Source: an uncultured Solirubrobacteraceae bacterium (lineage in GTDB: Bacteria; Actinomycetota; Thermoleophilia; Solirubrobacterales; Solirubrobacteraceae). Taken from it: a stretch of DNA of 64,000 nt. A program made the translations under genes and the position numbers. The first letter of the stretch is position 1, and the number at the start of each line of letters is the position of its first letter. Positions 7,585 through 18,201 of this stretch are shown piece by piece. Where the stretch lies: positions 83,071-147,070 of the forward strand of contig CAWIRA010000005.1 in the NCBI GenBank assembly GCA_963838405.1, in the 5' to 3' direction. Under the pieces are notes generated by a model. The model was not told where the DNA came from and ran no database searches. It saw only the letters and a program-made list of their open reading frames with translations.

Positions 7585-7636
7585 CGAAAATATTCAAACC
7601 GCGACATCCAGCACTTACGTGTGTTCAATGCCCCAT

Positions 7637-8302
7637 ATGAAACGAATATCTCTTGCCCTGATCGTCACCGCCGCGTTCGCGCTGGCGCTGCCGGCCCTCG
7701 CGCCCGCGACGCTCACCGAAGTCGGCGTCATCGGTGAAACCACGCCCGCGACCGCGCCGAGTTGTCCTGGCACCCCGTGTCTGGCGGTCAGCCGCACAAC
7801 AGGCTTTCAGGTCAAGGTCGCCACCGCCAACAATCTCGTCAGCGCACCGCGCGAAGGCACGATCGTCGCCTGGACGATCACGCTCGGCAACCCGAACCCC
7901 ACCCAGATCAAGTACTTCAACGCCAACGAGGGCGGCCCCTCCGAAGCCGGGATCGCGATCCTCGCTCCTCAGAGGAAGCCAAACCTGACCTACAAGCTGA
8001 TCGCCCAGAGCCCGCTGGTCAAACTGCAGCCGTACTTCGGCAAGACCGCGCAGTTCCCGCTCGAAACAACGATCCCGGTCAAGAAGGGCTACATCGTCGC
8101 GCTGACCGTGCCCTCGTGGGCGCCGGCGCTAGCACTCGGATTCGGCGAAAACACGTCGTGGCGCGCCAGCCGCCCCAAGGCCGGCTGCAAGAGCACCAGC
8201 TCCCAAACGACACAGACCGCGATCGGCAGCGCCGTCCAGTACTACTGCCTCTACCAGACCGCCCGCCTCACCTACAGCGCAACGCTGATCTCCACGCCGT
8301 AG
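7637..8302 (+). CDS. Secreted hypothetical protein
   Basis: Signal peptide MKRISLALIVTAAFALALPALAPA; strongly GC3-biased codons; four Cys. Confidence 0.75.
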   Translation: MKRISLALIVTAAFALALPALAPATLTEVGVIGETTPATAPSCPGTPCLAVSRTTGFQVKVATANNLVSAPREGTIVAWTITLGNPNPTQIKYFNANEGGPSEAGIAILAPQRKPNLTYKLIAQSPLVKLQPYFGKTAQFPLETTIPVKKGYIVALTVPSWAPALALGFGENTSWRASRPKAGCKSTSSQTTQTAIGSAVQYYCLYQTARLTYSATLISTP

Positions 8303-8324: not shown

Positions 8325-8429
8325 CCTAGGCGTTCGCTGGGCAAGCAAGGCAAGGACGCAGGGAGCGCCGCGTGCTGCGCACGCAAGCGACTGAGGACGC
8401 AGCATTGCGCCGCCCAGCGGGCGCCTAGG
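8325..8429 (+). repeat. Structured dispersed element, copy A (~105 nt, long terminal stem)
   Basis: CCTAGGCGTTCGCTGGGC...GCCCAGCGGGCGCCTAGG terminal stem; core homologous to the reverse complement of 16766-16870. Confidence 0.8.
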
Positions 8430-8823
8430 GGGCGCTGGCGCCGCCGGTGGGGCTGGCCGGCGCCGTAGGTTCGCTGGCTTTGGATTCGGCTTCGCTCGAG
8501 GCCGGTTTTTCTGCAGCGGCGGCGCCGCCGGAGCTGCCTTCGGTGCTGGGTGCGCTCCCACCGGAGGATGATTCGCTGTTTTCGCTCGCGGGCGTTTCTC
8601 CGGAGGAGGTCGTGCTTTCGGTCGTCTTGGTGCTCTTGGTCGAGGTCGTGCCGGTCGAGGTCGTCTGCGCGGCGGCCGCCGCTTCGGCGCTCGTGTCCGT
8701 CGGCGGCGTCAGTTCAGGGGTGCTTTTGGGCACCGCGTCGGAGACGCTGGTGCCGCCGCACGCGGCCAACGCCAACCCACAGAGCAGCGCTGCGCATGCG
8801 GCGAGCGCTACGCGGGTCCTCAC
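8425..8823 (-). CDS. Ser/Thr/Ala-rich low-complexity lipoprotein
   Basis: GTG start overlapping upstream TGA; lipobox LAAC-GG; disordered S/T/E-rich body. Confidence 0.7.
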   Translation of the reverse strand: MRTRVALAACAALLCGLALAACGGTSVSDAVPKSTPELTPPTDTSAEAAAAAQTTSTGTTSTKSTKTTESTTSSGETPASENSESSSGGSAPSTEGSSGGAAAAEKPASSEAESKASEPTAPASPTGGASAP

Positions 8824-9080
8824 AGCGGTCCCATACGCCTGCCGCAGGTGGGGCACTCGTTGAGGTCCTTCTGCGAGTGCTGGTCGCACCACGGGCAGAA
8901 GCGCATGTTCTCCACCGCCCACGGCAGCCGCGAGCGCGACGGCGCCAGCGGCAGCACCTTGCCCACGATCTCGAGCGGCTCGCCCGACTCGCGGTCCAGG
9001 TAGATCTCCTCCGGCTCGGCCTCGATCAGCACTTCGCGGCCTGCGGAGCTTCGTAGTCGATAACGCTGTCTAGTGCTCAC
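8820..9080 (-). CDS. Small zinc-ribbon protein
   Basis: CPWC...CPTC; -10 TAAAGT 7 nt before GTG. Confidence 0.7.
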   Translation of the reverse strand: MSTRQRYRLRSSAGREVLIEAEPEEIYLDRESGEPLEIVGKVLPLAPSRSRLPWAVENMRFCPWCDQHSQKDLNECPTCGRRMGPL

Positions 9081-16190: not shown

Positions 16191-16299
16191 GAGGCAATAG
16201 TTGCAAGTGCTCGGAGGGGCGTCCCTCCGGGCAGGTTGACCGCAGGAGCGTTGCCGTTGCGCCATCGATGGAGCATCTGAGCGGGAGGTGGGAGCGAGC

Positions 16300-16713
16300 A
16301 TGCAAGTCCAGCAAGGCATGAGCGAGATGGTCCTCACAGTCGGTCCCAGCCACACGCTGCGCGAGGTCGCGAAGCTGATGGCGCAGCGGCGCGTGGGCGC
16401 GGCCGTGGTCATGGACCCGGACGGCCCTGGCCCGGGCATCATCACCGAGCGCGACATCCTCGTGGCGCTCGGCGCCGGCGAGGATCCGGACCACGAGCAG
16501 GTCATCGACCATCTGACGCGCGACGTCGTCTTCGCTGCGCCCGACTGGTCGCTGGAGGAGGCCGCGGCGGCGATGGTTCGCGGCGGCTTCCGTCACCTGA
16601 TCGTCCTCCAGCGCGGCGAGACCATCGGTGTGCTGTCCGTGCGCGACATCGTGCGCTGCTGGACCGACGACGGTGCGATCTGCTCGGTGCCCGCCAGGGT
16701 AGCCGTGGGGTGA
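16300..16713 (+). CDS. Stand-alone tandem CBS-domain protein
   Basis: GPGIITERDI, FRHLIV, GVLSVRDIV; RBS GGAG before ATG 16300. Confidence 0.9.
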   Translation: MQVQQGMSEMVLTVGPSHTLREVAKLMAQRRVGAAVVMDPDGPGPGIITERDILVALGAGEDPDHEQVIDHLTRDVVFAAPDWSLEEAAAAMVRGGFRHLIVLQRGETIGVLSVRDIVRCWTDDGAICSVPARVAVG

Positions 16714-16721
16714 ACGGGGGA

Positions 16722-16756
16722 GGTGGCAGGCCTGCTTTGGGGAGCAGGCTGCCACC
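16722..16756 (+). terminator. GC-rich hairpin after the CBS gene
   Basis: GGTGGCAG-G-CCTGCT/TTGGGG/AGCAGG-CTGCCACC, no U tract. Confidence 0.55.
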
Positions 16757-16765
16757 ACCACGGCC

Positions 16766-16870
16766 CCAGCGGACCGTCGACGCGGCGCGGACCGGTGTCC
16801 TCGGTCGCTCGCGTGCCTTCGCACGCCACGCTTCCTGCGTCCTTGGTCCGCTTGGTCGACGGCCCGCTGG
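16766..16870 (-). repeat. Structured dispersed element, copy B
   Basis: CCAGCGGACCGTCGAC...GTCGACGGCCCGCTGG terminal stem; core matches copy A at 40 of 45 non-loop positions. Confidence 0.8.
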
Positions 16871-16909: not shown

Positions 16910-17137
16910 CTAGCGGTGGTCTAGCGGGAGTTCGTTGACTTCGCGGCGCGTGTCTTTGATCCAGAGTGCGATGCAGACGACCGTCAGGATCCCGCCGATG
17001 ACGGTGAACTCGATGAACGTGGTGACGCCGACCAGCGTGAGCGTAATACCCACGGCGGTCAGCAGCGGCAGGATGCTTGGCCCGGGAAGGTGGATCTCCT
17101 CGCCGACGGGCGGCACGTCAGGATCGACGGGGCTCAT
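16910..17137 (-). CDS. 75-aa two-TM protein, cytochrome c oxidase subunit IV (CtaF-like)
   Basis: GEEIHLPGPSILPLL...WIKD pattern; ATGA-coupled at the end of the ctaC-ctaD-ctaB operon. Confidence 0.7.
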   Translation of the reverse strand: MSPVDPDVPPVGEEIHLPGPSILPLLTAVGITLTLVGVTTFIEFTVIGGILTVVCIALWIKDTRREVNELPLDHR

Positions 17138-17247
17138 GAGATGTACGCGGCGGCGACGACGAACGTCAGGCCGAACATGAACATGCAGATCGCGGCCACG
17201 ATCAGCCCGGTGATGATGTTCTTGCGTGCGAGGCGGCGGGTCATCAT
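17134..17247 (-). CDS. 37-aa single-TM protein downstream of ctaB
   Basis: MMTRRLARKNIITGLIVAAICMFMFGLTFVVAAAYIS; ATGA overlap with next gene; below ORF-track cutoff. Confidence 0.65.
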   Translation of the reverse strand: MMTRRLARKNIITGLIVAAICMFMFGLTFVVAAAYIS

Positions 17248-17265: not shown

Positions 17266-18201
17266 CTAGAGGTGCCGGTCGGCGACCATCGCGCAGAACA
17301 GCAGCGCTAGGTACGCGAGTGAGTAGAGGTACAGGCGCAACGCCGAGCGCCGGTCGGCCCGTCGATACAGGCGCACGGCGCCGGCGATGAAGCCGACGCC
17401 CAGCACCAGCGACGCCACGAGGTAGATCGCGCCGAAGCCGCCCGCGCAGAACGGCAGCTGTGTGACCGCGTACAACAGCACGGAGTAGAGGAGGATCTGC
17501 CGCCGCGTCTCGGCCTCGCCGCGCACCACGGGTAGCATCGGCACGCCGACCTCGCCGTACTCGTCCTTCATCAGCAGCGACAGCGCCCAGAAGTGCGGCG
17601 GCGTCCAGAAGAAGACGATGAAGAACAGGATCACCGCGGTGCCGCTGACCGAGCCGGTGACCGCCGCCCAGCCGACCAGCGGCGGCACCGCACCGGCGGC
17701 GCCGCCGATGACGATGTTCTGCGGGGTACGCCGCTTCAGCCAGAAGGTGTACACGAACACGTAGCCGAGGAAGCCGGAGAACGAGAGCGCCGCTGCGAGC
17801 GGGTTGACGGTCAGCGACAGCTCGAGCAACGACAGCGCCGCGAGCGTGCAACCGAACACGAGCGCGGCGCGCGGTGAGATCCGCCCCGCCGGAATCGGCC
17901 TCGTGGCGGTGCGAGCCATGCGCGCGTCGATGTCGCGGTCGAACCAGTGGTTCACGGCGCCCGCGCCGCCCGCGGACAGGTAGCCGCCGAGGCAGGTGAG
18001 CGCGACCAACAGCACCGACGGATCGCCCGCGACGTACATCGTCGCGATCGTCGTCAGCAGCAGCAGCGATTGGACCTTCGGCTTGGTCAGCTCCAGGTAG
18101 TCGCTCAGCACCTGCAGCGCGCCGCCCGCGCGGCGATCGGCGATCGCGAGTGTCGGTGTCTCGATCGCCGGCGCTGCGCCTGGGTGTGGCGCGAGGCTCA
18201 T
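17266..18201 (-). CDS. ctaB: Protoheme IX farnesyltransferase (heme o synthase)
   Basis: YLELTKPKV, NHWFDRDIDARMARTATRP, LKRRTPQNIVIGG, WTPPHFWAL. Confidence 0.97.
   Translation of the reverse strand: MSLAPHPGAAPAIETPTLAIADRRAGGALQVLSDYLELTKPKVQSLLLLTTIATMYVAGDPSVLLVALTCLGGYLSAGGAGAVNHWFDRDIDARMARTATRPIPAGRISPRAALVFGCTLAALSLLELSLTVNPLAAALSFSGFLGYVFVYTFWLKRRTPQNIVIGGAAGAVPPLVGWAAVTGSVSGTAVILFFIVFFWTPPHFWALSLLMKDEYGEVGVPMLPVVRGEAETRRQILLYSVLLYAVTQLPFCAGGFGAIYLVASLVLGVGFIAGAVRLYRRADRRSALRLYLYSLAYLALLFCAMVADRHL

Follow-up and report, generated by a model that had tools for sequence, protein, structure and literature searches.

The element at positions 16,766 to 16,870 of the window (the whole 64,000-nucleotide stretch of an uncultured Solirubrobacteraceae genome that was analysed here) belongs to a dispersed family of palindromic repeats which behaves as a small mobile or formerly mobile element and not as a dedicated regulatory RNA. 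Pairing in its stems is kept on the purine-rich strand only, with G.U and G.A there and C.A and C.U in the complement. The element, copy B hereafter, may thus be read as a member of a non-coding, mobile-type palindromic repeat whose purine strand folds in single-stranded form during the propagation of the element. We consider this reading evenly balanced when it is taken as a whole, and the single-stranded DNA step by itself is held with less confidence.

The preliminary description of this DNA had reported copy B as the second copy of an element (copy A being the first), and the sequence was found there on the minus strand, 105 nt long (Table 1). Read on this strand, which is its purine-rich and better-folding strand, copy B is CCAGCGGGCCGTCGACC AA GCGGACC AAGGACGCAGGAAGCGTG GCGTGC-GAAG-GCACGC GAGCGACCGAGGACACC GGTCCGC GCC GCGTCGACGGTCCGCTGG. 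From base to tip it folds into an outer stem of 17-18 bp, an AA/GCC internal loop, a 7-bp middle stem, a large, purine-rich and conserved internal loop and a 6-bp apical hairpin, the last being the site where nested modules insert in other copies. The purine-rich consensus quoted in that description fits both A and B. Both copies had also been placed at convergent junctions, which is borne out on both flanks of each by gene calls made with our own GC3-based caller. Copy A lies between a plus-strand gene (7619-8302) and a minus-strand gene (8425-8922) whose stop, at 8425-8427, falls within the outermost base pairs of the 3' arm of the repeat. Copy B is flanked by a plus-strand gene encoding a CBS-domain protein, with orthologues in 39 of 41 relatives, and by a conserved small minus-strand gene that lies upstream on the purine strand. 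The same-strand gene upstream of the hairpin ends 23 nt ahead of it in A and 40 nt ahead of it in B. A separate hairpin at 16722-16756 has no T-run and is kept in L139 and L147, two relatives without the repeat; it is probably the CBS gene's own 3' hairpin because it is conserved in relatives that lack the repeat.

Table 1. Coordinates in the window of the two copies of the repeat, the parts of copy B and its neighbours
Feature	Position	Strand	Remarks
Copy A, 103 nt	8326..8428	+ (purine strand)	Covariance model match C5:91396-91498, plus strand, 108.4 bits
CBS-domain gene, converging on copy B from the 3' side of its purine strand	16288..16713	+	Pfam CBS, E = 2e-22
Separate bulged 14-bp hairpin, outside the repeat	16722..16756	+	Directly after the CBS stop (TGA at 16711-16713)
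Copy B, entire element	16766..16870	-	Covariance model match C5:99836-99940, 89.8 bits, E = 1.6e-15
Copy B middle stem 3' arm GGTCCGC, GCC bulge and outer stem 3' arm GCGTCGACGGTCCGCTGG	16766..16793	-	
Copy B 3' core GAGCGACCGAGGACACC	16794..16810	-	AGCGA..GAGGAC invariant
Copy B apical hairpin GCGTGC-GAAG-GCACGC	16811..16826	-	6-bp stem, 99% paired in the family, C-G to U-A covariation
Copy B 5' core AAGGACGCAGGAAGCGTG, purine-rich side of the internal loop	16827..16844	-	Columns invariant in the 49 aligned copies
Copy B middle stem 5' arm GCGGACC	16845..16851	-	7 bp with 16787-16793; conserved AA bulge beside it
Copy B outer stem 5' arm CCAGCGGGCCGTCGACC	16854..16870	-	Partner is 16766-16783; holds the G.T wobble
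Small conserved gene (start approximate)	16910..17230	-	C-terminal coding sequence kept across same-genus loci
UbiA-family gene, upstream of the small gene	17266-18201		Pfam UbiA, E = 8e-68

The hairpin is real and its stems are kept paired through compensatory change. In a gapless alignment of 103 columns and 49 copies, standard pairs fill 93% of the cells, against 70% after shuffling and 27-44% with slid partners; these copies were picked for mostly paired stems, which raises the 93% figure and leaves the covariation unaffected. Changes on both sides occur at 26 of the 36 pairs. Throughout the family all 17 pairs of the outer-stem helix show covariation, which in 16 involves both sides of the pair, and double changes are found at five of the seven pairs of the middle stem. 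The outer stems are specific to the copy and fall into subfamilies shared between species; their consensus is degenerate and their length constant at 17 bp. The ends of the element are variable, reading YYT(A/G)(A/G). The G-C pairs between the 5' core AAGGACGCAGGAAGCGTG and the 3' core GAGCGACCGAGGACACC are broken by tandem G.A. That tandem G-A pairs can form here had been proposed beforehand, and their helical position is backed by variants with Watson-Crick pairs in both places, namely CCUU/AGG and AGUC/GACU in copies from two other genomes. Column 37 reads against column 66 as G-C, C-G, A-U or U.U, and the core pair of columns 36-67 is G.U in copy A (AGCGACTGAGG) and G-C in copy B, the very change that had been pointed out. 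A coding role for the core was rejected on reading, because the apical loops of 3-6 nt shift the frame.

The genome of the window (3.79 Mb) holds 24 copies of 103-105 nt, that is A, B and 22 more recovered with a covariance model, and they are dispersed at spacings from 5 kb to hundreds of kb. The model comprises 49 copies, copy A included, all but five of them from other genomes. The element sets considered below were drawn by an exact-core pattern which found at least 120 loci, and all the matches listed were in Solirubrobacterales, Thermoleophilia or unclassified actinomycete assemblies. The same pattern had no match in viral contigs and a phage origin was rejected on this ground. In a sample of the phylum 14 of 201 genomes were positive, and among the 31 genomes of the window's genus the number of copies goes from 0 to 48, with none in G206 and G216 and 47-48 in G209 and G211. 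Conexibacter sp. CPCC 206217 also carries a copy (L007). The repeat is confined to Solirubrobacterales/Thermoleophilia and one further family of the phylum. A search of the window against Rfam 15 returned one tRNA only at the gathering threshold; around copy B nothing meaningful appeared at E up to 10, and four loci with a longer form gave nothing at E up to 1. Searches of the literature for repeats of Solirubrobacterales or Conexibacter turned up nothing relevant, and the family is apparently undescribed so far.

The longer form, of about 165-170 nt, occurs in another family of the phylum and, within the family to which the window belongs, in a single genome. These copies (L121-L128 and L133, about 50 nt on either side of the model match) have an extra outer stem of about 28 bp, very rich in G.U, and an opposite-strand stop is again found at the outermost pairs, 30-35 nt past the boundary of the short form. 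Other variants are mosaics. Some copies of the main element contain a nested palindrome of about 47 nt (TGGCCGAAACGGGGATGCGAGC...GTCTCCCGGCTTCGGT), in either orientation and at varying positions (C1:401161-401305, C1:357649-357742, C6:1751605-1751750 and C6:99350-99494 in the genome of the window, and L191, L201 and L216); a third module, ACCGATCGAAGATCGATGGGATC...GGCCAGC, and a 20-nt module, ACCCCTTCGGGGCACAGGC, nest likewise. Solo 3' halves, made of GCGACCGAGGAC with the middle and outer arm, stand beside gene ends in the genome of the window (C6:1980820, C6:1149895, C6:555545 and C6:1180615), where no solo 5' halves were found. In further copies the 5' core is swapped for a ..AAAGCCCGCCCACCCCGCG.. 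block, the 3' core and the arms being retained (C5:266879-267043 and C6:364211-364323 in the same genome, L199 and L213), and at C5:266879-267043 two such variants lie in tandem.

The position of the repeat relative to genes follows a general rule: an end of the hairpin lies on a stop codon, and mostly it is the 3' end of the purine strand that meets a gene of the opposite strand. At least one gene 3' end adjoins about 92% of the copies. Among 103 elements of other genomes an opposite-strand gene ends on the 3' side of the purine strand in 81, and in 68 a distance of 15-31 nt separates its stop codon from the core. These distances peak sharply at 25-27 nt, a spacing that puts the stop in the last 3-5 base pairs at the foot of the outer stem. 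Of the same 103 elements, 58 have a same-strand gene whose end is at most 150 nt away on the 5' side, and here the distances are far more scattered. The stop codon is the only part of the host gene that lies within the element; the C-termini are native and diverse, and the genes concerned include those for FtsZ, AtpG, NusG and GatC in this genome. When the 87 elements with both neighbours at most 400 nt away are classed by neighbour type, 35 (40%) are convergent, against a baseline of 21% (1.9-fold), and 6 (7%) are divergent, which is a depletion from 14%; tandem genes, for which the overall baseline is 65%, are antisense to the purine strand in 33 cases and sense to it in 13, atpG|atpD and nusG|rplK being examples of such operon sites. 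The supposed preference for convergent genes therefore holds as an enrichment of about two-fold, but not as the rule (35 of 87). The orientation tracks the adjacent gene. With respect to GC skew the purine strand is leading in 9 and lagging in 15 of the copies of the window's genome, and no replication-strand bias of the kind known for IS200/IS605 was seen. The region after the hairpin holds on average about 2 T in 12 nt on either strand, with runs of at least four T in 1-2% of the copies, and before the hairpin there is no TANNNT enrichment on either strand; a promoter of its own and a U-tract terminator were rejected on these two results.

The wobbles that had been said to fall on a single strand of each copy do so. 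Copy A has two T.G on the plus strand, which are C.A on the minus strand, and copy B has a G.T on the minus strand, which is A.C on the plus strand. When both strands are folded as RNA, the predicted energy of copy A is -64.6 kcal/mol on the purine strand and -61.3 kcal/mol on its complement, and that of copy B is -69.4 and -64.7 kcal/mol, so that the purine strand is the lower in both. The other copies uphold what had been drawn from these two, since the bias is present family-wide. In the stems of 161 elements, read on the purine strand, G.T occurs 158 times and A.C 46 times (binomial p = 1e-15), a sign test by element gives 88 against 21 in favour of G.T, and purine.purine mismatches number 277 against 46 pyrimidine.pyrimidine ones. 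Of 134 elements, 105 have the more stable fold on the purine strand when RNA parameters are used and 118 when DNA parameters are used, and in the long forms this strand exceeds its complement by 10 to 38 kcal/mol in all eight cases examined. The pyrimidine strand also folds, at about -53 kcal/mol.

This asymmetry is equal across convergent, tandem-antisense and tandem-sense copies. The mean energy difference is -3.6 kcal/mol in the tandem antisense context (purine strand more stable in 29 of 33; G.T to A.C 13 : 3), -3.1 kcal/mol in the convergent context (25 of 35; 21 : 9) and -4.5 kcal/mol in the tandem sense context (9 of 13; 3 : 0). As it is the same in every gene context, a role as 3'-UTR RNA cannot explain the choice of strand, and we infer that this choice is a property of the element and not of the host 3' UTR. 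A mutational origin was also considered: on general grounds, transcription-linked deamination of the non-template strand would be expected to bias the pairs in the opposite sense, and such an origin was set aside for that reason.

The preliminary description had left two options for the function, a 3'-UTR role or a targeting preference, and the second is the better one. A positional preference is evident in the hairpin ends that lie on stop codons and in orthologous sites that are filled in some congeners and empty in others. As a general explanation, a 3'-UTR function of the purine-strand RNA finds no support: the gene that bears the stop is on the opposite strand in 68 of 103, the tandem copies are antisense in 33 cases against 13 sense, the antisense copies show the same asymmetry and no T-run follows. 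For copies A and B themselves, with gene ends 23 and 40 nt upstream, the 3'-UTR reading is locally self-consistent, but it does not generalise.

The evidence for mobility comes from empty sites and from paralogues. The spacer between the CBS gene and the small gene, which belongs to an oxidase locus, carries copy B in this genome only; it holds a copy of a different subfamily in one congener and, in one genome of another genus, a copy directly on the CBS stop, and most relatives have it empty. In L147 and L139, which are the nearest relatives, the flanks are the same and exactly the 105-nt hairpin is missing, both arms included; the inserted unit is the whole hairpin with its outer stem. Among 29 genomes the nusG|rplK site is filled in 8 and the atpG|atpD site in 11. 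At empty nusG|rplK sites the nusG stop and the rplK ATG are between overlapping and 3 nt apart in most genomes and 17-24 nt apart in a few. In genome G209 two copies are 97% identical across the whole 103 nt, arms included, and have unrelated flanks; no clean orthologous empty site was found for the young copy of this genome, whose flank belongs to a multi-copy gene family. As to a target-site duplication, copies ended by TGA...TCA are without one, their ends being inverted and not direct, and copies ended by CTAG could hide TA or CTAG. Among the model matches in the genome of the window no split copy flanking a gene was found.

Some further observations were made at these loci. The filled nusG|rplK sites (L166, L172, L173, L175, L184, L191 and L193) have an additional 30-70 nt of AT-richer spacer before rplK, which is missing from most of the empty sites (those compared were L168, L169, L171, L174 and L176); the insertion must therefore bring, or precede, new start signals for rplK. 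At L245-L256 there are multi-copy membrane-protein genes ending in ...ARYYG*, and the repeat lies on the stop in some of the paralogues (L245, G209:C7:2094857) and not in others. The CBS spacer and nusG|rplK are also hot spots that house other palindrome families in genomes of the same genus. These include a GGGCGCGGnTGAGGGnCCGCGCCC hairpin, arrays of perfect palindromes centred on GCATGC or ACATGT and G5/C5 repeats, and they were seen at L137, L140, L142, L146, L150 and L153 (about 60-110 nt past the CBS stop), at L157, L181, L186 and L193, and at L152 and L154.

In this mobile-type element, folding in single-stranded form is probably required of the purine strand. Our leading guess is that single-stranded DNA would be recognised by a structure-specific recombinase or transposase, with the conserved purine-rich internal loop as the recognition site, and that the cut sites would be placed by measuring over the 7-bp and 17-bp helices as far as the hairpin base, much as for integron attC sites or REP hairpins. 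The excess of copies with the pyrimidine strand in the mRNA may result from oriented insertion or from better tolerance of that orientation, in which the mRNA hairpin would be weaker and the message would be free of the Shine-Dalgarno-like AAGGA/GAGGA. Anything that the element does to the transcripts of its host, for instance by forming a 3' hairpin where the stop codon lies, would then be secondary.

Against the leading reading stand the missing RAYT transposase of this genome, an autonomous element with the same ends that was likewise not found, and the lack of a general target-site duplication. Two further sets of observations count against the DNA step. The first comes from orthologous copies. 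Those at nusG, read by hand, have G.T at differing positions, no A.C and one G.A mismatch kept in all of them, and a block of 4-5 nt in their outer stem shows compensated differences; among the atpG copies there is one group whose stem reaches into the coding sequence, and there a Leu codon CTG, CTA or TTG covaries with CAG, TAG or CAA in the far arm. From the alignments, the compensatory changes in place and the position-variable G.T at these operon-internal sites look like selection in place, and this counts against the leading reading because a purely selfish single-stranded DNA step does not predict such changes. They fit a site-by-site function of the purine strand, or hot spots into which the element was inserted repeatedly. 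The second is the G.U density of the long forms, which is more typical of RNA than of DNA hairpins.

Both sets lead to a reading in which the purine-strand hairpin acts as RNA, on transcripts antisense to the abutting gene, where it would serve as a terminator or insulator working in one direction only, or else as a 3' structure to which a protein binds. Such transcripts would arise by convergent read-through or by divergent transcription from the next promoter and would be stopped before entering the gene, which would explain why the 3' base of the hairpin sits on a stop codon. This has a modest chance of being right, well short of even. G.U-rich stems are a hallmark of RNA, and they are extreme in the long forms, where the strands differ by up to 38 kcal/mol. 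Compensatory change in place, with G.T and without A.C, at orthologous operon-internal copies points the same way, and so do the 3' end of the purine strand on an opposite-strand stop (68 of 103), the 1.9-fold enrichment of convergent sites and the upstream same-strand gene ends at 23 nt for A and 40 nt for B. However, the hairpin has neither a T-run after it nor a promoter-like signal before it, and 38% of the copies lie between tandem genes, the atp operon included, where a transcript of the purine strand is unexpected. Moreover, the range of 0 to 48 copies among congeners and the housekeeping sites that are mostly empty argue against a needed host function.

It is less probable, and in our opinion unlikely, that the host mRNA, carrying the pyrimidine strand, is the working molecule, as a 3' or intercistronic hairpin at the stop codon of the REP, ERIC or TRIT type. 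It would stabilise the upstream message, offer a site to RNase III or act on terminating ribosomes, and the wobble asymmetry would be a by-product, for instance if true C.A mismatches were selected because they weaken the hairpin in the mRNA. The sign of the wobbles is left unexplained by this, as the compensatory intermediates are G.U on the other strand; the outermost 28-bp stem of the long forms would largely fail to pair in the mRNA strand, the asymmetry is unchanged where the purine strand is itself the mRNA strand, and there is no U-tract. On the other hand, the pyrimidine strand is in the mRNA in 33 of the 46 tandem cases, so that the orientation bias would be accounted for, a stop codon is at the base of the hairpin, a narrow placement on stop codons is shared by the TRIT motifs of Mycobacterium (PMC3152330), and the pyrimidine strand retains a fold of about -53 kcal/mol. 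As a secondary effect, a function in the sense mRNA like that of REP or TRIT is possible. Finally, it is highly improbable that the elements were inserted into existing terminator hairpins or had their far arm copied from the target, with outer stems that are host sequence and a covariation that is an artefact: outer stems that vary among copies yet pair inside each, and the Leu codon that covaries with the far arm in one atpG group, would suit it, but it is largely refuted by orthologous empty sites that lack both arms and by 97%-identical young paralogues at unrelated loci that have both arms in common, and the arms follow a degenerate family consensus with a fixed 17 bp.

A mobile-type element has several known counterparts. 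REP, BIME and REPIN sequences are mobilised by RAYT (TnpA_REP) transposases in Enterobacteria, Pseudomonas and Stenotrophomonas. Like the present repeat they are dispersed extragenic palindromes at gene 3' ends and in operons, with tens of copies per genome, a hairpin thought to be recognised in single-stranded form, mosaics with other small modules and long persistence in a lineage. However, the present repeat is three to five times longer (103-170 nt against 20-40 nt for REP), is without a GTAG or CGTC tag and has its conserved part in the internal loop near the apex, with variable ends that lie on stop codons. The genome of the window, 93% complete, gave no match to the Y1 RAYT transposase (PF01797), for which control genomes were positive, and mobilisation of the RAYT or IS200 type was rejected since the transposase is missing from the genome.

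The ERIC/IRU, YPAL and Correia MITEs are also imperfect palindromes of 100-170 nt which form long hairpins in transcribed intergenic regions, and orientation-dependent effects have been reported for elements of this type. Presence or absence at orthologous sites and near-identical paralogues are features of these elements that were found here as well. These MITEs have conserved terminal inverted repeats and a TA duplication, whereas here the inverted-repeat arms are specific to the subfamily and no general duplication was seen; the strong one-strand wobble bias and the stop-codon register are proper to this repeat. Integron attC sites resemble it in that structure is conserved over sequence, in single-strand folding antisense to the upstream ORF, in a start at or on the stop of that ORF and in a strand fixed by unpaired or mismatched features. 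However, the repeat has no RYYYAAC/GTTRRRY core sites and no conserved AAC/GTT at its ends; its copies are dispersed and not in cassette arrays, its conserved part is central and not terminal, and it stands behind core housekeeping genes, where the element alone is gained or lost and not a gene with its site.

A parallel in an actinobacterium is an intergenic palindrome at gene termini. The 'Tuberculosis Rho-independent terminator' (TRIT), reported from Mycobacterium only, is a sequence-conserved palindrome of about 150 copies, mostly bidirectional (Gardner et al. 2011, PMC3152330), which is bound to the ends of genes within a very narrow range of distances from the stop codon and for which that paper reports neither strand asymmetry nor insertion polymorphism (PMC3152330). 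Both are actinobacterial palindromes placed on stop codons. They differ in size and in host, Mycobacterium against Solirubrobacterales/Thermoleophilia, a distinction that was drawn from description and distribution. An intrinsic (Rho-independent) terminator differs from the repeat in that its G+C-rich hairpin needs a U-tract, which the repeat does not have. We therefore read it as an intergenic palindromic repeat of the REP/ERIC/TRIT-like kind, unusual in its one-strand structure antisense to host genes and in its ends in stop-codon register.

Intergenic palindromic repeats have been well studied in Proteobacteria and, with TRIT, in Mycobacterium; little is known of them in the Thermoleophilia. 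This is an abundant and mostly uncultured soil group, and its annotation needs this repeat and its relatives to be recognised at gene ends. A clean one-strand wobble signal is usually read as marking an RNA strand, and the present case indicates that it is no proof of a sense-strand 3'-UTR RNA. The favoured strand is mostly antisense to the genes it touches, even in the atp and nusG-rplK operons, and this paradox of the strand implies either a single-stranded DNA step or a role of RNA from the antisense strand. We tentatively suggest, as a possibility that falls clearly short of probable, that the hairpin is a strand-specific substrate defined by its structure: a putative enzyme would recognise the conserved purine-rich loop once the purine strand has folded, whether this strand is single-stranded DNA, like attC, or an RNA intermediate. 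It would act at a measured distance, at the base of the hairpin, and deposit the element on stop codons with its orientation fixed relative to the gene. If true, recognition of such a strand-specific hairpin would represent a novel means by which non-autonomous elements target gene ends.
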